Shown piece by piece: positions 1 to 8,417 of a stretch of DNA of 8,417 bases. The stretch's first letter is position 1; the number at the start of each line of letters is the position of its first letter. Below the pieces are notes generated by a model. It was not told where the DNA came from. It made no database searches and worked only from the letters and a program-made list of their open reading frames with translations. The stretch is from a virus (taxonomy: Duplodnaviria; Heunggongvirae; Uroviricota; Caudoviricetes). Location: the IMG/VR virus record IMGVR_UViG_2671180637_000014, positions 1-8,417 of that record. The stretch is one strand, 5' to 3'. Made by a program: the position numbers and the translations under genes.

Positions 1-1448
1 ACCTTATCAGTAAGGTGATGGGCAGTATTTCTAATCCTGAAATTCGCCGGATGGAGCTGATGAACACCATCGCCGGTATTGAGCGTTACGCCGCCGCAGA
101 GGGTGATGTGGGGATGTTTATCACGCTGACCGCGCCGTCAAAGTATCACCCGACACGTCAGGTCGGAAAAGGCGAAAGTAAAACCGTCCAGCTTAATCAC
201 GGCTGGAATGATGAGGCATTTAATCCAAAGGATGCGCAGCGATATCTCTGCCGTATCTGGAGCCTGATGCGCACGGCATTCAAGGATAATGATTTACAGG
301 TCTACGGTTTGCGAGTCGTCGAGCCACACCACGACGGAACGCCGCACTGGCATATGATGCTTTTTTGTAATCCACGCCAGCGTAACCAGATTATCGAAAT
401 CATGCGTCGCTATGCGCTCAAAGAGGATGGCGACGAAAGAGGAGCCGCGCGAAACCGTTTTCAGGCAAAACACCTTAACCGGGGCGGTGCTGCGGGGTAT
501 ATCGCGAAATACATCTCAAAAAATATCGACGGCTATGCACTGGATGGTCAGCTCGATAACGATACCGGCAGACCGCTGAAAGACACTGCCGCGGCTGTTA
601 CCGCATGGGCGTCAACGTGGCGCATTCCGCAATTTAAAACGGTTGGCCTGCCGACAATGGGGGCTTACCGTGAACTACGCAAATTGCCTCGCGGCGTCAG
701 CATTGCTGATGAGTTTGACGAACGCGTCGAGGCTGCACGCGCTGCCGCAGACAGTGGCGATTTTGCGCTGTATATCAGCGCGCAGGGTGGGGCAAATGTC
801 CCGCGCGATTGTCAGACTGTCAGGGTTGCCCGTAGCCCGTCGGATGACGTTAACGAGTATGAGGAAGAAGTCGGGAGAGTGGTCGGCATTTACGCGCCTC
901 ATCTCGGCGCGCGTCATATTCATATCACCAGAACGACGGACTGGCGCATTGTGCCGAAAGTGCCAGTCGTTGAGCCTTTGACTTTAAAAAGCGGCATCGC
1001 CGCGCCTCGGAGTCCTGTCAATAACTGTGGAAAGCTCACCGGTGGTGATACTTCGTTACCGGCTCCCACACCTTCTGAGCACGCCGCAGCAGTGCTAAAT
1101 CTGGTTGATGACGGTGTTATCGAATGGAATGACCCGGAGGTCGTGAGGACGCTCAGGGGTGCATTAAAACACGGCCTGAAAACACCAAATCGTCAGCAAA
1201 GAAACGGAAGCCCGTTAAAACCACATGAAATAGCACCGTCGGCCAGACTGACCCGGTCGGAACGATTGCAAATTACCCGTATCCGCGTTGATCTCGCTCA
1301 GAACGGTATCAGGCCGCAGCGATGGGAGCTTGAGGCGCTGGCGCGTGGCGCGACCGTAAATTATGACGGGAAACAATTCACGTATCCGGTTGCTGATGAG
1401 TGGCCGGGATTCTCCAACTTTATGGCGTTCAGTAGTGAACATTACTGA
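1..1448 (+). CDS. A: Replication initiation endonuclease (P2 gpA-like, rolling-circle HUH family); 5'-truncated by the window edge
   Basis: The reading frame is open from the window edge (no in-frame stop upstream of nt 15) to TGA at 1446-1448. It contains the HUH metal-binding motif HWHMMLF (nt 345-365) and the twin-tyrosine nicking motif GYIAKYISK (Tyr codons at 498-500 and 510-512), as in P2 gpA and phiX174-type initiators. GC-rich, enterobacterial-like codon usage. Confidence 0.88.
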   Translation, partial: LISKVMGSISNPEIRRMELMNTIAGIERYAAAEGDVGMFITLTAPSKYHPTRQVGKGESKTVQLNHGWNDEAFNPKDAQRYLCRIWSLMRTAFKDNDLQVYGLRVVEPHHDGTPHWHMMLFCNPRQRNQIIEIMRRYALKEDGDERGAARNRFQAKHLNRGGAAGYIAKYISKNIDGYALDGQLDNDTGRPLKDTAAAVTAWASTWRIPQFKTVGLPTMGAYRELRKLPRGVSIADEFDERVEAARAAADSGDFALYISAQGGANVPRDCQTVRVARSPSDDVNEYEEEVGRVVGIYAPHLGARHIHITRTTDWRIVPKVPVVEPLTLKSGIAAPRSPVNNCGKLTGGDTSLPAPTPSEHAAAVLNLVDDGVIEWNDPEVVRTLRGALKHGLKTPNRQQRNGSPLKPHEIAPSARLTRSERLQITRIRVDLAQNGIRPQRWELEALARGATVNYDGKQFTYPVADEWPGFSNFMAFSSEHY

Positions 1449-1520
1449 GAATCTTCGGTTTTTATTAGTTGTGAATAAGGGGAATAGCGTTCTGTACATA
1501 TGGGGCTATGTAATAAATAT

Positions 1521-1556
1521 AAACCGTCAGTTCATTCTGACGGTTTATATATTTTT
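1521..1556. terminator. Bidirectional intrinsic terminator between the convergent gene A and the SIR2-like gene
   Basis: Perfect 10-bp inverted repeat AAACCGTCAG (1521-1530) / CTGACGGTTT (1537-1546) with a 6-nt loop, flanked by T-rich sequence on the + strand (ATATATTTTTAT) and A/T-rich sequence on the - strand. It lies just downstream of both convergent stop codons. Confidence 0.6.
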
Positions 1557-1560
1557 ATGC

Positions 1561-3042
1561 TTAGTATGATAGAAAATCATACAGGCACAATAATTTACGG
1601 TAATGAGTATCTATTTTGTGTGATATAGAGATAAGATATTTTCTGAGTTGTGCTAAGGAAATGGTGTCATTAAGTACACAATACATGATTGTATTGGCTA
1701 CTTTATATTCTTTTGTTGTTTCTAATATCTCATCTATTGTTGTTGCATCACATCTGCACGCTTTAATTCTAGTGAGTTGATTTATTATCTTATCCAGTTG
1801 TCTGTCTTTGTATAGCTTAACGTTTTCTAATTCAGGGCATACAGAACTAAATGCGTAAATTGGAAAGTGCTCATGATTTGTGATAGTTTGTTTATTCAAA
1901 AGTGCAATGAGTTGTGCGTTAGCTTCATCGACAATTTTAAAGTAATTTTGAATCATTTCAGATTTTGTCTGGTATTCGTAGGTAACAGTTCTTTCTGAGC
2001 CTACAGCGATTACCATTTCTTCATTCCGTAATTCATCGAGGTTTTCCGTGATTTTTACCTTGATTTCACCGCCACTTTTTATTGTATTCCAGACTTTTTG
2101 TACTTTTCTTATATCCATTGCGGAAACAGGGAGAATTAAATTAGATATGGCATCGTAAACGGCTTTGTAATTGTCTGTTTTGATTTTGTTAATTCTTATA
2201 ATGGATAAACCTTCAATATTAATATCATGTTCAGAAATAGTTGTAGACATGTTCCCCTCATCATATTCAACAAGGAGAAAGTTGTCTTTTATTTTTTTTG
2301 CTAGTTCAGTATTTAGATCTACATATGAAAATATTGTCTGCAGGAGGTATTTAATATTCTTATCACTGATGCTATATCCTAAAAAAATAATGGGGTTGTG
2401 AATGAATATAGATAATAGTTGAGCACGTATTAACTCATATTTGTCATTAAAGTTATTATAATCATCAGATGTTATGATTATGTTGTTGGGGTCACTAACA
2501 CAACCGTGTATTTTATATACCGAGCCATATGGATTGCTTAGTAATATATTGTTGCCAATAAGCGGGGAGAAATCGAATAAATTTTCGATAAGTTGATCGT
2601 AATTGGTGGTAATAATTGAGCCAATATTCTTTCTTGTTTTTATTAAGCTATTAATCTCATCTCTTAAATCTTCTTTGAGAGGTGAGTCTTTTAATATTGA
2701 TGTTAGGTATATTTTGAACCGGCTAAGTTTTTTTCCATGACTCATGTTCTCGTAGAAAATATCATTGATGCTTTCAAACTTTCCGTTTCTGTCTTCGGCG
2801 AGTTTCTTATTGAAGATATTCTCTAATTTTGTTGCAAGAATGTCGTATCTGTATTCGTCACCTTCAATACTTTCCGATTTAAGATCATAATAAAATTCAG
2901 GATTGCCAGTTAAATCAACGGCAATTTTCATCAATAACCCATCCCAACTGAATGAGTTTTGCAGATATCTTAGACTAAAACCTGTACCTATAAAAAGAAC
3001 AGGGTGGTTTTTGTACTGGCTGACAAATTCTTTGATTTCCAT
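1561..3042 (-). CDS. SIR2-like (ThsA/DSR-type, SIR2_2-like) predicted NAD+-hydrolase with an uncharacterized C-terminal domain; candidate single-gene anti-phage defense protein (phage moron)
   Basis: 493-aa ORF, ATG at 3042-3040, TAA at 1563-1561, with no competing long ORF. The N-terminal half has the ordered SIR2 motif set: glycine-rich loop VLFIGTGFS (aa 15-23, nt 2974-3000), TTNYDQLIE with the predicted catalytic Asn147 (nt 2596-2610), YKIHGC with the predicted catalytic His179 (codon 2506-2508), and FLGYSISD (aa 220-227). Base composition is strongly AT-rich compared with the flanking phage genes. It sits at the gpA-cos position where P2 has tin/old. Confidence 0.8.
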   Translation of the reverse strand: MEIKEFVSQYKNHPVLFIGTGFSLRYLQNSFSWDGLLMKIAVDLTGNPEFYYDLKSESIEGDEYRYDILATKLENIFNKKLAEDRNGKFESINDIFYENMSHGKKLSRFKIYLTSILKDSPLKEDLRDEINSLIKTRKNIGSIITTNYDQLIENLFDFSPLIGNNILLSNPYGSVYKIHGCVSDPNNIIITSDDYNNFNDKYELIRAQLLSIFIHNPIIFLGYSISDKNIKYLLQTIFSYVDLNTELAKKIKDNFLLVEYDEGNMSTTISEHDINIEGLSIIRINKIKTDNYKAVYDAISNLILPVSAMDIRKVQKVWNTIKSGGEIKVKITENLDELRNEEMVIAVGSERTVTYEYQTKSEMIQNYFKIVDEANAQLIALLNKQTITNHEHFPIYAFSSVCPELENVKLYKDRQLDKIINQLTRIKACRCDATTIDEILETTKEYKVANTIMYCVLNDTISLAQLRKYLISISHKIDTHYRKLLCLYDFLSY

Positions 3043-3250
3043 ATTAATTCTCGAAGTTGATCATCGTTATCTCTATACAACCAAATAGCAGATAAAACTT
3101 CAAACAGACTTTCAAAAAGCGACATATGTTTTGGCAGAATAAGGATGAGCGCATCAGTGTCAAGAAGATTTGAGATCTTAATCTACTCAATAGGAACAAG
3201 ACGTCAGACTTAATTGTGTACTACCGGTGAAAACTGCCTGATAAAGTTGA
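3043..3250 (-). promoter_or_regulatory. Putative promoter/5' leader region of the SIR2-like gene
   Basis: AT-rich non-coding DNA immediately upstream of the ATG at 3042 on the - strand. There is a weak Shine-Dalgarno-like GAGA 7-10 nt upstream of the start, and a possible -35-like TTGAAG (plus coordinates 3098-3103), but no convincing -10 hexamer was identified by eye. Position and composition only; no transcription start site can be assigned. Confidence 0.3.
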
Positions 3251-3436
3251 ATCTACGGCATGATTCGTCGGTTTTTTATGCGATATTACCTTAGTTTCTG
3301 TTGTCCTTGGTAATACTGACGTTATTGCATTAAATTGCATGTGTTTTGATTTCATGCCCTTTGCCAACTACGTCAATACTGGTGCTGTTTCCACGTGTTT
3401 ATGCACTTGCATTAAAACCGCAACATGAAGCGGGCG

Positions 3437-3455
3437 GGCGAGGCGGGGAAAGCAC
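3437..3455. other. cos site: 19-nt cohesive-end sequence of P2-type phages
   Basis: The sequence GGCGAGGCGGGGAAAGCAC at 3437-3455 matches the P2 cohesive-end sequence as I recall it. It lies in a GC-rich block just outside the end of portal gene Q, the position expected for P2 cos. Confidence 0.75.
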
Positions 3456-3596
3456 TGCGCGCTGGCGGTGGTGCTGATTTTATTTTTTCAGCGTCTGAAC
3501 GCGCCGTGATGACGTTTAGATTGTTAGCCGGGGCGTTGGTGTGTCTGCGGGCTGTTTTGTGCGGTGGTGAGCGTGTGAGGGCGTGATGACGGGATG

Positions 3597-3619
3597 TAAA
3601 AAAGCCGCCCGCAGGCGGC
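3597..3619 (-). terminator. Intrinsic terminator downstream of portal gene Q (end of the P-Q operon)
   Basis: On the - strand: stem GCCGCC / GGCGGC (plus coordinates 3604-3609 and 3614-3619) with a 4-nt loop, followed by a run of six T's and an A (plus-strand A-run 3598-3603). It starts 5 nt after the Q stop codon. Confidence 0.65.
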
Positions 3620-3624
3620 GATGT

Positions 3625-4659
3625 TCAGCCGTTGTCAGTGTCCAGTGAGTAGTTTTTAAAGCGGATGACCTCCTGACCGAGCCAGCCGTTTATCTCGCGG
3701 ATCCTGTCCTGTAACGGGATAAGCTCATTGCGGACAAAGACCTTTGCCACTTTCTCAATATCGCCCAGCGACCCGACGTTCTCCGGCTTGCCGCCCATCA
3801 ACTGAAAGGGGATGCGGTGTGCGTCCAGCAGGTCAGCGGCGCTGGCTTTTTTGATATTAAAAAAATCGTCCTTCGTTGCCACTTCACTGAGGGGGATAAT
3901 TTTAATACCGTCGGCTTTCCCCTGTGGGGCATAGAGAAACAGATTTTTAAAGTTGTTGCGGCCTTTCGACTTGACCATGTTTTCGCGAAGCATTTCGATA
4001 TCGTTGCGATCCTGCACGGCATCGGTGACGTACATGATATATCCGGCATGAGCGCCGTTTTCGTAATACTTGCGGCGGAACAGCGTGGCCGACTCATTCA
4101 GCCAGGCAGAGTTAAGGGCGCTGAGATATTCCGGCAGGCCGTACAGCTCCTGATTAATATCCGGCTCCAGCAGGTGAAACACGGAGCCGGGCGCGAAGGC
4201 TGTCGGCTCGTTGAAGGACGGCACCCACCAGTAAACATCCTCCTCCACGCCACGGCGGGTATATTTTGCCGGTGAGGTTTCCAGTCTGATGACCTTACCG
4301 GTGGTGCTGTAACGCTTTTCCAGAAACGCATTACCGAACACCAGAAAATCCAGCACAAAGCGGCTGAAATCCTGCTGGGAAAGCCACGGATGCGGGATAA
4401 ACGTTGAAGCCAGAATATTACGTTTGACGTAAATCGGGGAGCTGTGATGCACGGCAGCACGCAGGCTTTTTGCCAGACCGGTAAAGCTGACCGGTGGCTC
4501 ATACCATCTGCCGTTACTGATGCATTCGACGTAATCCAGAATGTCACGGCGGTCGAGTACCGGCACCGGTTCGCCAAAGGTGAATGCCTCCATTTTCGGG
4601 GCGCTGGCGGTCATTTTTTTTGCCGCAGGTTGCGGTGTTTTCCCTTTTTTCTTGCTCAT
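3625..4659 (-). CDS. Q: Portal protein (P2 gpQ-like)
   Basis: 344-aa ORF, the same length as P2 gpQ. The lysine-rich N-terminus MSKKKGKTPQPAAKK and the overall sequence are recognisable as the P2-family portal. Its ATG (4659-4657) overlaps the stop codon of P by one nucleotide. High-GC phage-backbone composition. Confidence 0.93.
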   Translation of the reverse strand: MSKKKGKTPQPAAKKMTASAPKMEAFTFGEPVPVLDRRDILDYVECISNGRWYEPPVSFTGLAKSLRAAVHHSSPIYVKRNILASTFIPHPWLSQQDFSRFVLDFLVFGNAFLEKRYSTTGKVIRLETSPAKYTRRGVEEDVYWWVPSFNEPTAFAPGSVFHLLEPDINQELYGLPEYLSALNSAWLNESATLFRRKYYENGAHAGYIMYVTDAVQDRNDIEMLRENMVKSKGRNNFKNLFLYAPQGKADGIKIIPLSEVATKDDFFNIKKASAADLLDAHRIPFQLMGGKPENVGSLGDIEKVAKVFVRNELIPLQDRIREINGWLGQEVIRFKNYSLDTDNG

Positions 4660-6431
4660 CAGTAAAACTCCAGAATGGTGGATGTCAGCGGGGTGCTGAT
4701 ACCGGCGGTGAGTGGCTCATTTAACAGAGCGTGCATGGTCGCCCAGGCGAGGTCGGCGTGGCTGGCTTCCTCGCTGCGGCTGGCCTCATAGGTGGCGCTG
4801 CGTCCGCTGCTGGTCATGGTCTTGCGGATAGCCATAAACGAGCTGGTGATGTCGGTGGCGCTGACGTCATATTCCAGACAGCCACGGCGGATAACGTCTT
4901 TTGCCTTGAGCACCATTGCGGTTTTCATTTCCGGTGTGTAGCGGATGTCGCGCGCGGCGGGATAGAACGAGCGCACGAGCTGGAACACGCCGACACCGAG
5001 GCCGGTGGCATCAATACCGATGTATTCGACGTTATATTTTTCGGTGAGTTTGCGGATGGATTCCGCCTGGGTGGCAAAGTCCATGCCTTTCCACTGGTGA
5101 CGCTCAAGTATTCTGAATTTGCCACCGGCCACCACCGGCGGTGCCAGCACCACGCATCCGGCACTGTCGCCACGGTGTGACGGGTCGTAACCAATCCATA
5201 CCGGGCGGGAGCCGAACGGATTCGCGGCAAACGGCGCATAGTCTTCCCATTCTTCCAGCGTGTCGACCATGCAGCGTTGCAGCTCCTCGAACGGGAACAC
5301 CGACGCCTTGTCGTCAACAAATTCACACATGAACAGGTTTTTAAAATCGTCGGCGCTGTTTTCGCGTTTAAGCTGCTCAATGTCGAACAATGTGCAGCCG
5401 CCTTTCAGGGCGTCCTCAATGGTGACAATCTGCCGCCACTGGCCGTCCGCACAGAGAAGCCCACCGGCAAGGGCGTTATGACTGACGTCGATTTCCACGC
5501 GTTCGGCGGCGCTGGCGCGTCCCCGGTTGAACAGTTCCCCCGACCAGAACGGGTAGGCGTCGTGCGCCAGCGTGGACGGGGTGGAGAAATAGGTCGAGCG
5601 CAGGTGACTCTGTGAGGCCATACCTGATGCCACCTTACGCAGTACCTGAAAATTCGGGATCCAGAAAATCTCATCGACGTACAGGTCGCCGTTATGGCTC
5701 TGTGCGGTGTTGGAGTTGGTGCCGAGAAAAATCAGTTTTGCACCGTTATTGCCCAGGACAATCGGGTCACCGGTCAGGTCAACGTCAACCAGCCGGGCAA
5801 AGGCAATGATGTATTCGCGGAACACATACGCCTGCGTTTTACTGGCCGACAGAAAAATCTGGTTATGGCCGGTTTTCAGGGCGCGCAGCAGCGCCTCGCG
5901 GGAAAAATAAAACGTCGCGCCAATCTGGCGGGATTTCAGGATATCGCGGATGCGGTGCTCAAGCCCGGCACGATACCAGTGCAACTGATAGTCGAAAGAC
6001 TGCTCAAAGAAAATCTGCTCCAGCTTTTCGATAGCCTCGTCACTGAAAAAATTCTTTTTCGGTTTGCGCCGCCCGCCTTTGTTGCGGTTAGCGATGTTCG
6101 GATTAAGGTCTGCCTCGTTGCCGGTCTGGCTGTAGCGGTTGACCCGTGCCAGTCGTTCAATCTGGCGTCCGAGCAGGTCAATTTCCTTGAAGTCACCGCC
6201 GGTTTTCTGCGGTTTGATGATGAGCTGGGTCAGCCGCGCTTCCAGACTCATTTCGACACGGCTGATGGGGGCAACACTGTCCCAGCCGTCGCGCTGTTTC
6301 CAGCTCTGCACCGTCGGGCGTTTCATCTGCAACATGGCGGCAATCTGCGGCACGGAAAACCCCTGCCAGTACAGCAGCGCCGCCTGACGACGCGGGTCGT
6401 GTAAAAGAGTGGTGTCTGTGGTGATGGTCAT
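4659..6431 (-). CDS. P: Terminase large (ATPase/endonuclease) subunit (P2 gpP-like)
   Basis: Long - strand ORF. The start is assigned to the ATG at 6431-6429 (protein begins MTITTDTTLLHDP, 590 aa, the P2 gpP length) rather than the upstream ATG at 6461, because a GAGG Shine-Dalgarno lies 6-9 nt upstream of 6431. The TGA stop at 4661-4659 overlaps the Q start. The sequence is recognisable as the P2-family terminase ATPase subunit. Confidence 0.93.
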   Translation of the reverse strand: MTITTDTTLLHDPRRQAALLYWQGFSVPQIAAMLQMKRPTVQSWKQRDGWDSVAPISRVEMSLEARLTQLIIKPQKTGGDFKEIDLLGRQIERLARVNRYSQTGNEADLNPNIANRNKGGRRKPKKNFFSDEAIEKLEQIFFEQSFDYQLHWYRAGLEHRIRDILKSRQIGATFYFSREALLRALKTGHNQIFLSASKTQAYVFREYIIAFARLVDVDLTGDPIVLGNNGAKLIFLGTNSNTAQSHNGDLYVDEIFWIPNFQVLRKVASGMASQSHLRSTYFSTPSTLAHDAYPFWSGELFNRGRASAAERVEIDVSHNALAGGLLCADGQWRQIVTIEDALKGGCTLFDIEQLKRENSADDFKNLFMCEFVDDKASVFPFEELQRCMVDTLEEWEDYAPFAANPFGSRPVWIGYDPSHRGDSAGCVVLAPPVVAGGKFRILERHQWKGMDFATQAESIRKLTEKYNVEYIGIDATGLGVGVFQLVRSFYPAARDIRYTPEMKTAMVLKAKDVIRRGCLEYDVSATDITSSFMAIRKTMTSSGRSATYEASRSEEASHADLAWATMHALLNEPLTAGISTPLTSTILEFY

Positions 6432-6604
6432 GAATACCTCGCCGTGATGAATACACGGCAAGGCTACTGAGTCGCGCCCCGCGATTCGCTAAGGTGCTGT
6501 TGTGTCAGTGATAAGCCATCCGGGACTGATGGCGGAGGATGCGCATCGTCGGGAAACTGATGCCGACATGTGACTCCTCTAATCACTATTCAGGACTCCT
6601 GACA
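6432..6604. promoter_or_regulatory. Divergent intergenic region between P and O; expected site of the divergent late promoters of P2-like phages
   Basis: A 173-bp non-coding gap between the divergently transcribed P (-) and O (+) genes. In P2 this gap holds the Ogr-activated late promoters PP and PO. I could not find an exact TGT-N12-ACA activator element by eye, so the call rests on gene arrangement alone. Confidence 0.45.
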
Positions 6605-7459
6605 ATGGCAAAAAAAGCATCAAAATTCTTTCGTATCGGCGTTGAGGGTGACACCTGTGACGGGCGTGTCATCAGTGCGCAGGATATTCAGGAAATGGCC
6701 GAAACCTTTGACCCGCGAGTCTATGGTTGCCGCATTAACCTGGAACATCTGCGCGGCATCCTGCCTGACGGTATTTTTAAGCGTTATGGCGATGTGGTCG
6801 AACTGAAGGCCGAAAAGATTGACGATGATTCGGCGCTGAAAGGCAAATGGGCGCTGTTTGCGAAAATCACACCGACCGATGACCTTATCGCGATGAACAA
6901 GGCCGCGCAGAAGGTCTACACCTCAATGGAAATTCAGCCGAACTTTGCCAATACAGGCAAATGTTATCTGGTGGGTCTGGCCGTCACCGATGACCCGGCA
7001 AGCCTCGGCACGGAATACCTGGAATTCTGCCGCACGGCAAAACATAACCCTCTGAACCGCTTCAAATTAAGCCCTGAAAACCTGATTTCAGTGGCAACGC
7101 CTGTTGAGCTGGAATTTGAAGACCTGCCTGAAACCGTGTTCACCGCCCTGACCGAAAAGGTGAAATCCATTTTTGGCCGCAAACAGGCGAGCGATGACGC
7201 CCGTCTGAATGACGTGCATGAAGCGGTGACCGCTGTCGCTGAACATGTGCAGGAAAAACTGAGCGCCACTGAGCAGCGCCTCGCTGAGATGGAAACCGCC
7301 TTTTCCGCACTTAAGCAGGATGTGACTGACAGGGCGGATGAAACCAGCCAGGCATTCACCCGCCTGAAAAACAGCCTCGACCACACCGAAAGTCTGACCC
7401 AGCAGCGCCGCAGCAAGGCCACCGGCGGTGGCGGTGACGCCCTGATGACGAACTGCTGA
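6605..7459 (+). CDS. O: Capsid scaffolding protein (P2 gpO-like)
   Basis: The start is assigned to the ATG at 6605 (MAKKASKFFRIGVEGDTCDGRV...), giving 284 aa, the P2 gpO length. An AGGA Shine-Dalgarno lies at 6592-6595. The ORF-track start at 6539 is an in-frame upstream extension with no ribosome-binding site. TGA stop at 7457-7459. Confidence 0.92.
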   Translation: MAKKASKFFRIGVEGDTCDGRVISAQDIQEMAETFDPRVYGCRINLEHLRGILPDGIFKRYGDVVELKAEKIDDDSALKGKWALFAKITPTDDLIAMNKAAQKVYTSMEIQPNFANTGKCYLVGLAVTDDPASLGTEYLEFCRTAKHNPLNRFKLSPENLISVATPVELEFEDLPETVFTALTEKVKSIFGRKQASDDARLNDVHEAVTAVAEHVQEKLSATEQRLAEMETAFSALKQDVTDRADETSQAFTRLKNSLDHTESLTQQRRSKATGGGGDALMTNC

Positions 7460-7517
7460 CCGGCGTCAGTCAGTCCGGGAAAACCTTCACGATTAACCCT
7501 TAATTTCAGGAAAAACT

Positions 7518-8417
7518 ATGCGCCAGGAAACCCGCTTTAAATTTAATGCCTACCTGTCCCGTGTTGCCGAACTGAACGGCATCGACGCCGGTGATGTGTC
7601 GAAAAAATTCACCGTTGAACCGTCGGTCACCCAGACCCTGATGAACACCATGCAGGAGTCCTCTGATTTTCTGACCCGCATCAACATTGTGCCGGTCAGC
7701 GAAATGAAAGGGGAAAAAATTGGTATTGGTGTCACCGGCTCCATCGCCAGCACCACCGACACCGCCGGTGGCACCGAGCGTCAGCCGAAGGACTTCTCGA
7801 AGCTGGCGTCAAACAAGTACGAATGCGACCAGATTAACTTCGATTTTTATATCCGCTACAAAACGCTGGACCTGTGGGCGCGTTATCAGGATTTCCAGCT
7901 CCGTATCCGTAACGCCATTATCAAACGCCAGTCCCTTGATTTCATCATGGCCGGTTTTAACGGCGTGAAGCGTGCCGAAACCTCTGACCGCAGCAGCAAT
8001 CCGATGCTGCAGGATGTGGCGGTCGGCTGGCTGCAGAAATACCGCAATGAAGCCCCGGCGCGCGTGATGAGCAAGGTCACTGACGAGGAAGGTCACACGA
8101 CCTCTGAGGTCATCCGCGTGGGTAAGGGCGGTGATTATGCCAGCCTCGATGCACTGGTGATGGATGCGACCAACAACCTGATTGAGCCGTGGTATCAGGA
8201 AGACCCTGACCTTGTGGTGATTGTGGGGCGTCAGCTACTGGCGGACAAGTATTTCCCCATCGTCAACAAGGAGCAGGACAACAGCGAGATGCTGGCCGCT
8301 GACGTCATCATCAGCCAGAAACGCATCGGCAACCTGCCAGCGGTACGCGTCCCGTACTTCCCGGCGGATGCGATGCTCATCACGAAGCTGGAAAACCTGT
8401 CCATCTACTACATGGAT
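7518..8417 (+). CDS. N: Major capsid protein (P2 gpN-like); 3'-truncated by the window edge
   Basis: ATG at 7518 preceded by AGGA (7507-7510). The frame is open for 300 codons to the end of the window. The translation MRQETRFKFNAYLSRVAELNGIDAGD... is recognisable as the P2-family major capsid protein and follows O in the conserved O-N order. Confidence 0.92.
   Translation, partial: MRQETRFKFNAYLSRVAELNGIDAGDVSKKFTVEPSVTQTLMNTMQESSDFLTRINIVPVSEMKGEKIGIGVTGSIASTTDTAGGTERQPKDFSKLASNKYECDQINFDFYIRYKTLDLWARYQDFQLRIRNAIIKRQSLDFIMAGFNGVKRAETSDRSSNPMLQDVAVGWLQKYRNEAPARVMSKVTDEEGHTTSEVIRVGKGGDYASLDALVMDATNNLIEPWYQEDPDLVVIVGRQLLADKYFPIVNKEQDNSEMLAADVIISQKRIGNLPAVRVPYFPADAMLITKLENLSIYYMD

Follow-up and report, generated by a model that had tools for sequence, protein, structure and literature searches.

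The window analysed here is an 8,417-nucleotide stretch of viral DNA (positions 1 to 8,417 of the IMG/VR virus record IMGVR_UViG_2671180637_000014), and our subject is the one gene, coding for a SIR2-family protein, that it carries between the replication gene A (gpA) and the cohesive end site (cos). The window is a segment of a P2-type prophage, and the island between gpA and cos, across which the GC content drops from ~0.55 to ~0.30, is a mobile cassette with a single gene, inserted at the known P2 defence hotspot between these two landmarks. That gene, a SIR2_2 gene of 493 amino acids (aa), is found at 1561-3042 on the minus strand and was recognised from its open reading frame (ORF), from its matches to Pfam SIR2_2, PADLOC PDC-S25 and phrog_2695, and as a WP_021514374-type protein.

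An island with a single gene

The island is bordered on the left by the C-terminal part of gpA, a P2-type replication gene A (15-1448, plus strand; ORF and Pfam Phage_GPA, 1.8e-74), whose counterpart in L001, the E. coli locus with the same prophage (NZ_CP182365.1), is annotated 'replication endonuclease'. On the right, an exact string match places the P2 19-nt cohesive end GGCGAGGCGGGGAAAGCAC at 3437-3455 (plus strand); we take this 19-nt string to be the P2 cos sequence. This string also occurs in the P4 loci that were cloned in PMC9122126 (Table S2). The SIR2 gene is the only long ORF within 1449-3436. An earlier note on this DNA had put the gpA stop at 1448, cos at 3437 and a lone long ORF between them, and the ORFs, the Pfam matches and the exact cos string confirm it on each of these points. 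At 98.9% identity, the island occurs in 5 of 5426 complete E. coli genomes, in which the RefSeq annotation of the matching interval consists of a 'SIR2 family protein' alone.

The P2 gpA-cos region is the defence hotspot of Rousset et al. 2022 (PMC9122126), where the gene is already catalogued as a one-gene hotspot system, and at the sequence level our gene is identical to that family. Indeed, Table S5A of that study gives WP_021514374 as a one-gene 'SIR2_2' arrangement, and in Table S5B the identical sequence is system #132, with 19 occurrences (among 18,150 P2 loci) and the comment 'Likely a NADase'. System #132 is not among the systems cloned from the P2 hotspot (PMC9122126).

The transferable unit is made of a ~110-bp upstream promoter region, the SIR2 gene and a terminator hairpin. 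DNA homology to 91%-identical copies lying in a non-P2 context covers exactly 1517-3153. The left end of this mobile cassette, where the homology begins, is the hairpin at 1517-1550 (no strand assigned), which was found in a terminator scan, has a 14-bp stem with T-runs, resembles a bidirectional terminator, and lies downstream of both gpA and the SIR2 gene, 10 nt past the stop codon of the latter. Upstream of the SIR2 gene, the alignment of cassettes at 70-91% protein identity delimits a conserved 5' region that travels with it (3043-3111, minus strand), and the ~70-85 bp before the SIR2 ATG are conserved even among cassettes at 70-83% protein identity. This region contains a GAGA Shine-Dalgarno-like element and a promoter-like pair, composed of a -35 TTTGAA (3099-3104) and an extended -10 TGGTTGTAT (3075-3083); across cassettes, the -35-like element reads TTGGAA or TTTGAA. 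Furthermore, in two of the homologous loci (L012 from E. coli O21 and L003 from Klebsiella) the conserved 5' block comes directly after the terminator of the preceding gene. A second promoter-like match, TTGACA-16 nt-TATTCT (3136-3163, minus strand), is the best by consensus, with 10 of 12 positions matching, and lies where the cassette homology stops on the right (3153). Because a sigma-70 scan did no better than shuffled sequences (9 sites vs 8.7, i.e. no excess), we based the promoter calls on cross-locus conservation, and on this ground the pair within 3043-3111 is the probable promoter of the SIR2 gene.

The earlier note had counted roughly 400 bp (3043-3436) as remaining DNA devoid of any ORF of meaningful length. 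The second half of this statement stands, as there is no real ORF in it, but most of this DNA belongs to the gene's own upstream region and to the phage backbone, and the orphan part amounts to just ~165 bp. Indeed, these 394 bp are divided into the upstream region (3043-3153), an orphan spacer (3154-3320) and P2 backbone (~3320-3436). The spacer, AT-rich and without assigned strand, is neither cassette nor P2 backbone: outside the same 5 E. coli genomes it was not found, and the homologous cassettes lack it. It is probably a recombination scar, which may have been left by the arrival of the cassette. An imperfect 12-nt inverted repeat (3201-3212 and 3311-3322) is also found in this spacer. 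The last segment (3321-3436, no strand assigned) is diverged cos-proximal P2-type backbone; with 3100-3440 as a query in the 'distant' mode of blastn, query positions 220-341 match 890 E. coli genomes at 70-95% identity. Beyond cos, the window continues with the phage backbone, namely the portal gene Q (3625-4659, minus strand; Pfam Phage_portal and annotation), terminase P (4659-6461, minus strand) and scaffold O (6539-7459, plus strand).

Domains and variability of the SIR2 protein

The family assignment rests on two full-length matches, one to PADLOC PDC-S25 (PDLC04968; 8e-157, aa 2-493 on profile positions 13-514 of 517) and the other to phrog_2695 ('unknown function'; 2.6e-155, aa 1-493), and on a Pfam SIR2_2 match covering aa 142-239 (3.2e-22). 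The ThsA hidden Markov model, on the other hand, matches aa 127-301 only (profile positions 90-273 of 478). When the family profile was compared with the PDB sequences, it retrieved the SIR2 cores of DSR2 (1e-10), ThsA, KomC and FAM118B, and nothing else. Foldseek likewise gave fold matches to defence NAD+ (nicotinamide adenine dinucleotide) hydrolases (NADases), with DSR2 among the top ones; against viral structures it gave no match at E <= 0.001.

The SIR2 catalytic domain occupies aa 1-300 (2143-3042, minus strand) and carries the GxG loop (G19, G21), the TTNYD motif with Asn147 (codon 2602-2604) and the KIHG motif with His179 (codon 2506-2508). Asn147 and His179 align with the TTNYD and K-H-G motifs of DSR2. 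G19, G21, R25, W33, E129, T146, N147, D149, K177, H179, G180 and D489 are invariant down to 23% identity, together with a few further residues around 217-227. We used an AlphaFold (AF2) model built from 85 sequences, with a predicted local distance difference test (pLDDT) of 81 and a predicted template modelling score (pTM) of 0.72; a first AF2 model, from 20 sequences (pLDDT 73, pTM 0.49), was too weak and was rebuilt. In this model an alpha/beta SIR2 domain (~aa 1-300) is followed by a low-confidence connector (aa 306-356) and by a confident all-helical region (aa 360-493).

The connector, taken here as aa 301-359 (1966-2142, minus strand), includes the LPVSAMDIRKVQ stretch, which is highly conserved in sequence and has a pLDDT of ~40 in both models. 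The LPVSAMDIRKVQKVW stretch (aa 301-330; 2053-2142, minus strand) ranks with the best-conserved parts of the family (entropy 0.93), and yet has this same low pLDDT in both models. Such a conserved stretch may be an interface, for instance between subunits of an oligomer, or a conformational switch passing from disorder to order.

The C-terminal module, all-helical in the model (aa 360-493; 1564-1965, minus strand; pLDDT 82-93), matches no known family. We found no SLOG or other Pfam match in it (E up to 10), and no SLOG, Macro or other known second-messenger domain anywhere in the SIR2 protein. A weak similarity to the death-domain fold was noticed, for which the sequence profiles gave no clear support, either as an EAD or as a death domain. 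Because a profile restricted to the C-terminal region gave nothing but one-off noise against PDB and Pfam (ykzF 0.006, Leptin 0.04), the death-domain idea stays a weak structural lead. The module ends in an invariant Y488-D489 motif. Its extreme C-terminus (aa 481-493; 1564-1602, minus strand; RKLLCLYD..) is conserved again after a hypervariable patch, and D489 does not vary even in relatives at 23% identity, an unusual feature in a tail. The conservation of this tail, with its D489, suggests a functional contact.

The gene is under strong purifying selection, since the ratio of non-synonymous to synonymous substitution rates (dN/dS) is 0.035 when it is compared with the homologous copy at L013 (dS ~1.3). 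Selection is not uniform along the protein. A fast-evolving patch, at aa 406-480 (1603-1827, minus strand), lies inside the C-terminal module and stands out by its entropy (2.33 vs 1.16 in the SIR2 core), by the identity of the homologues to the window protein (26% vs 62% in the SIR2 core) and by its dN/dS (0.069 vs 0.029 elsewhere, ~2.4x). Moreover, all the non-synonymous differences from the near-identical E. coli allele of L001 fall within it. We propose that aa 406-480 could form a specificity or sensor surface.

Genomic contexts and the search for a partner

A first homology search returned 1727 matches of ~495-510 aa; 256 clusters at 50% identity have E < 1e-30 and contain proteins of nearly always 500-550 aa, and the ORF of our gene is intact and full-length like all its relatives. 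Proteins at least 51% identical were collected from 80 species (L027-L106) and belong to Proteobacteria, Firmicutes, Bacteroidota, Campylobacterota and Desulfobacterota, as well as to Deferribacterota, Thermotogae, Ignavibacteria and Patescibacteria. This is a very wide recent horizontal spread for a single gene, and an identity of at least 51% across at least eight phyla argues against the need for any host-specific partner. In phages, a megablast of the island against the phage collection gave no match, and tblastn retrieved distant members alone (28-31% identity), in temperate phages of Gram-positives; these (H31-H39) include Bacillus phBC6A51, Lactococcus BK5-T, Streptococcus prophages and Mycolicibacterium phage J1. 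They are full-length in the two best matches and all annotated as hypothetical.

The ten contexts inspected by hand share no partner, and their neighbourhoods all differ from one another. Beside the P2 hotspot, they comprise a second prophage type in Klebsiella and E. coli O21, an enterobacterial island, Nitrosospira (adjoining insertion sequence, IS, elements), a Firmicute island (beside a reverse-transcriptase system), Bacillus toyonensis, Bacteroides, and Neisseria and Aeromonas, where the gene stands alone among housekeeping genes. In the second prophage type (L002-L005 from Klebsiella, and L012) the cassette is inserted in the replication module, between the gene of an Enc34-type single-stranded DNA (ssDNA)-binding protein and that of a family-A DNA polymerase (PolA), with a spacer of ~70-110 bp on each side; it is co-oriented with the replication genes and has its own promoter-like element after a terminator. 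This module appears to be another phage hotspot, unrelated to that of P2, in which the same cargo inserts.

For a broader test, the 80 loci from the 80 species mentioned above were added to the hand-inspected ones, which gave 90 loci, and we clustered every ORF of at least 60 aa within 4 kb of the SIR2 gene. The most widespread flanking family is a serine recombinase, present in 7 of the 90 loci, followed by a tyrosine integrase and a C5-methyltransferase (6 loci each), then by HsdM and a relaxase (4 each); no HerA-like family is found among these clusters. The same comparison of ORFs of 20-59 aa within 400 bp of the gene gave no cluster common to the loci, save in three Peptoniphilus species that carry the same element. 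In the complete prophage, from the integrase to ogrK, there is no TIR, HerA, prokaryotic Argonaute (pAgo) or cyclase gene. The absence of a partner gene from the hotspot, reported by the earlier note, thus holds well past the window, since neither the whole prophage nor the 90 loci contain a conserved one, and a search of the rest of the prophage for TIR or other signal-generating genes was likewise negative. The genetic autonomy of the SIR2 gene is, on these comparative data, well supported.

Two other elements were considered as partners and rejected. The same prophage carries, outside the window, an AAA ATPase gene paired with a DUF4435 gene (L001 38077-40179), which match PARIS AriA (1.9e-25) and AriB (2.6e-21) and occupy the second P2 hotspot, flanked by the genes for tail-fibre assembly and for the tail sheath. 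This pair is the sole other cargo of the prophage, which carries two separate defence-type cargos; we ruled it out as a partner because PARIS, with its two genes, is already known as an independent system. The other element is found in L012, two genes downstream of the SIR2 homologue and after PolA, where 8691-9449 (AARYPC010000026.1) codes for a 252-aa TIR-like protein (Pfam CAP12-PCTIR_TIR; PADLOC PDC-S35, 1.7e-109). It was also ruled out, as it matches a separate one-gene candidate, PDC-S35, and the syntenic Klebsiella prophages lack it; it seems to be an independent one-gene cargo and not a Thoeris-like partner.

A candidate sensor-effector and its relation to known systems

The explanation that we hold to be the probable one is that this one-gene cassette encodes a compact, genetically autonomous sensor-effector. 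The protein would combine three parts: an N-terminal SIR2 domain of the defence-NADase type (Asn147, His179), a conserved connector, and a helical module at the C-terminus whose surface evolves fast. The enzyme would be kept inactive in uninfected lysogens. Upon infection by a competing phage, the C-terminal module, presumably through aa 406-480, would recognise a phage-derived cue, most likely a phage protein; this would change the oligomeric state, as in the structurally closest SIR2 NADases, several of which were solved as helical filaments, and DSR2 as a tetramer. The activated enzyme would then hydrolyse NAD+ and the infection would be aborted. No second gene would be required, and the logic would be that of DSR2 at half the size. 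A role in defence is suggested by the PDC-S25 match, the location in the P2 hotspot, flanks enriched in restriction-modification (R-M) and mobile-element genes, and the members found in temperate phages. The earlier note had left the choice between a protein that senses infection itself and one that uses a partner encoded elsewhere; the first branch is now the better supported, as no partner was found, and the second the less so.

Several points weigh against this explanation. SIR2 domains also act as deacylases or ADP-ribosyltransferases, activities that sequence alone cannot distinguish. No recognisable ligand-binding or protein-binding family was found in the C-terminal module, and the confidence of the model is low at aa 306-356. 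The dN/dS of aa 406-480 is still far below 1 and does not demonstrate positive selection. Moreover, a different one-gene SIR2 from the P4 hotspot (pFR88) appears in PMC9122126 among the 'additional tested systems' (Table S2B) and not in the validated list, and we found no experimental test of the PDC-S25 family in the searchable literature, where it is cited as a 'phage defense candidate'.

A bolder form of the proposal, which we regard as doubtful, would make the protein the smallest self-contained SIR2 immune receptor: a death-fold-like C-terminal module of six helices would read the cue through its hypervariable face and would also drive the homotypic assembly that activates the NADase. If this were true, it would be an effector-plus-death-fold protein devoid of STAND NTPase and of partner, spread singly across most bacterial phyla.

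Alternatively, the SIR2 protein could be an effector only, switched on by a distal signal (a nucleotide made by a TIR protein or a cyclase) or recruited, through homotypic contacts, by a distal protein with a matching death-like/EAD adaptor. Its closest folds include the signal-activated ThsA and KomC, and bacterial adaptors of the death-like/EAD kind may have their partners 'elsewhere in the genomes' (PMC8195603). We nevertheless find this unlikely, as the protein lacks any known second-messenger domain such as SLOG or Macro, the prophage has no signal-generating gene, and the sequence profiles gave no clear support for an EAD or death domain. The TIR-like gene lying two genes away in L012 could be taken as an argument for a distal signal, but its PDC-S35 match and its absence from the syntenic Klebsiella prophages speak against it. 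Furthermore, the movement of a lone gene among at least eight phyla, at 51% identity or more and as far as Patescibacteria, is hard to square with a required host partner. An improbable alternative, to which we give slightly less credit, is a SIR2-type deacylase or ADP-ribosyltransferase acting for the prophage outside defence, for example in the tuning of lysogeny, replication or host metabolism. The co-oriented position of the gene inside a replication module, between the ssDNA-binding protein gene and PolA in one prophage family, would fit such a role, as would the lack of any published phenotype found for the family. However, the replication-module copy has its own promoter-like element after a terminator, i.e. 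a moron-like organisation, our copy lies in a validated defence hotspot (PMC9122126), and other copies are found outside phages, beside R-M genes, IS elements or integrases, or alone among housekeeping genes.

Two further explanations appear very improbable. In one of them, a missed micro-protein or noncoding RNA in 3043-3436 (or in 1449-1560) would be the real partner, for instance an antitoxin-like regulator. ORFs of 43-51 aa do exist in 3043-3477, one of which (3044-3199, minus strand) stops a single nucleotide short of the SIR2 ATG. However, the longest ORFs of 3043-3436 (51, 48 and 43 aa) all start with TTG, none of them has an obvious Shine-Dalgarno sequence within the 20 nt before its start, and they are conserved neither in sequence nor in frame nor in position in the homologous cassettes; the 51-aa frame is lost in the 91%-, 83%- and 70%-identical ones. 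Moreover, L012 and L003 leave only 87-111 bp between the SIR2 gene and the previous gene, the DNA of 3154-3320 is missing from the homologous cassettes, and the 90 loci contain no micro-ORF cluster beyond the three Peptoniphilus species. The small-ORF check over 3043-3436, proposed in the earlier note, thus yielded no conserved micro-protein. As for an RNA, the leftover DNA has no tandem repeats (trivial 10-12-nt repeats alone), Rfam at a permissive threshold returned noise alone (a small nucleolar RNA, a tobacco mosaic virus pseudoknot, E > 0.3), and the orphan spacer has no RNA folding signal (z = -0.5 and -1.1); the absence of tandem repeats and of a folding signal led us to reject a ToxI-like or small RNA partner. 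Both forms of this explanation are largely refuted by the comparative data. It is equally hard to believe in a decaying, non-functional passenger gene. The rarity of the gene (5 of 5426 complete E. coli genomes; 19 of 18,150 P2 loci, PMC9122126) speaks for such a passenger, but the ORF is intact and full-length, dN/dS is 0.035 at dS ~1.3, the catalytic motifs are invariant, and the promoter region and the terminator are conserved.

Provided that the cassette defends alone, as the sensor-effector explanation supposes, prophages would be carrying, in a compact 1.6 kb, a one-gene system of NAD+ depletion that has been transferred very widely. The link between phage sensing and activation in a SIR2 NADase could then be studied in a minimal, helper-free model, and aa 406-480 would be a source of swappable specificity modules. 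The finding is correct but fairly ordinary, being already known as a catalogue entry; its conceptual gain is limited because single-protein SIR2 defences of the DSR2 type show the principle and because the gene was already listed as one-gene hotspot cargo.

Among the known systems, ThsA of type I Thoeris was the reference of the earlier note, which treated the protein as a ThsA-type effector normally in need of ThsB. The likeness is real in the N-terminal SIR2 domain, with its catalytic-type Asn and His, but it stops at the SIR2 core: ThsA PDB chains match the window protein up to residues 273-299 only, and where ThsA has a C-terminal SLOG domain binding glycocyclic ADP-ribose (gcADPR), the C-terminal third of our protein is all-helical and without SLOG. 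In addition, neither the island nor the prophage as a whole encodes a TIR protein of the ThsB kind. The idea that a SIR2 effector without neighbour is anomalous rests on the ThsA assignment, and therefore falls with it, as the SLOG domain and the ThsB neighbour are absent. Other SIR2 systems differ as well. The adjacent HerA ATPase gene of SIR2-HerA (Nezha) is not present in the island, in the prophage or in the flanking clusters; there is neither an APAZ fusion nor a pAgo gene, as in SIR2-APAZ/short pAgo (SPARSA), of which only the SIR2 core resembles ours; and Avs5 carries a STAND NTPase and a sensor domain, neither of which is found in the window protein. KomC (Kongming) is a protein of ~264 aa and, judging from the titles of its PDB entries, which name a KomBC complex with dITP, appears with a partner and a nucleotide, unlike the window protein. 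KomC, the SIR2 domain of Avs5 and human FAM118B have been solved as helical or filament assemblies (PDB).

The rarity of lone SIR2 defences implied by the earlier note is overstated. Indeed, DSR1 and DSR2 are established one-gene SIR2 defences (Garb et al., bioRxiv 10.1101/2021.12.14.472415; PMC10981675; PMC11087589), and others exist. A sole-Sir2 homologue protected against T2 and T4, and the protein turned NAD+ into ADP-ribose (bioRxiv 10.1101/2024.12.27.630466). Like ours, it is a small single-protein SIR2-like defence; it differs in having ~440 aa with the SIR2 domain at the C-terminus, after an unrelated N-terminal part, whereas the SIR2 domain of the window protein is N-terminal. Lactococcal AbiH, described as sirtuin-like (PMC13064643), is again a small single-protein SIR2-like Abi gene, and no PADLOC model named AbiH was among our matches. 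DSR2 of Bacillus subtilis is a one-gene system with an N-terminal SIR2 NADase-type domain and is the best PDB sequence match (1e-10), and its C-terminal non-catalytic region is the phage sensor (PMC10981675, PMC11087589). It differs by its size (~1000 aa) and by its architecture, which comprises a middle domain and, for binding the tail tube protein, a long alpha-solenoid C-terminal domain; the window protein has 493 aa and a helical module of ~130 aa, and its relatives have ~495-550 aa. The sequence likeness to DSR2 is confined to ~100 residues of the SIR2 core (query 139-235), and no PADLOC model named DSR was among the matches at E up to 0.1. The window protein belongs, over its full length, to the PDC-S25/phrog_2695 family, which occurs as a single gene without conserved partner, and if the cassette defends alone, PDC-S25 matches would be best annotated as complete systems and not as orphan parts of Thoeris.

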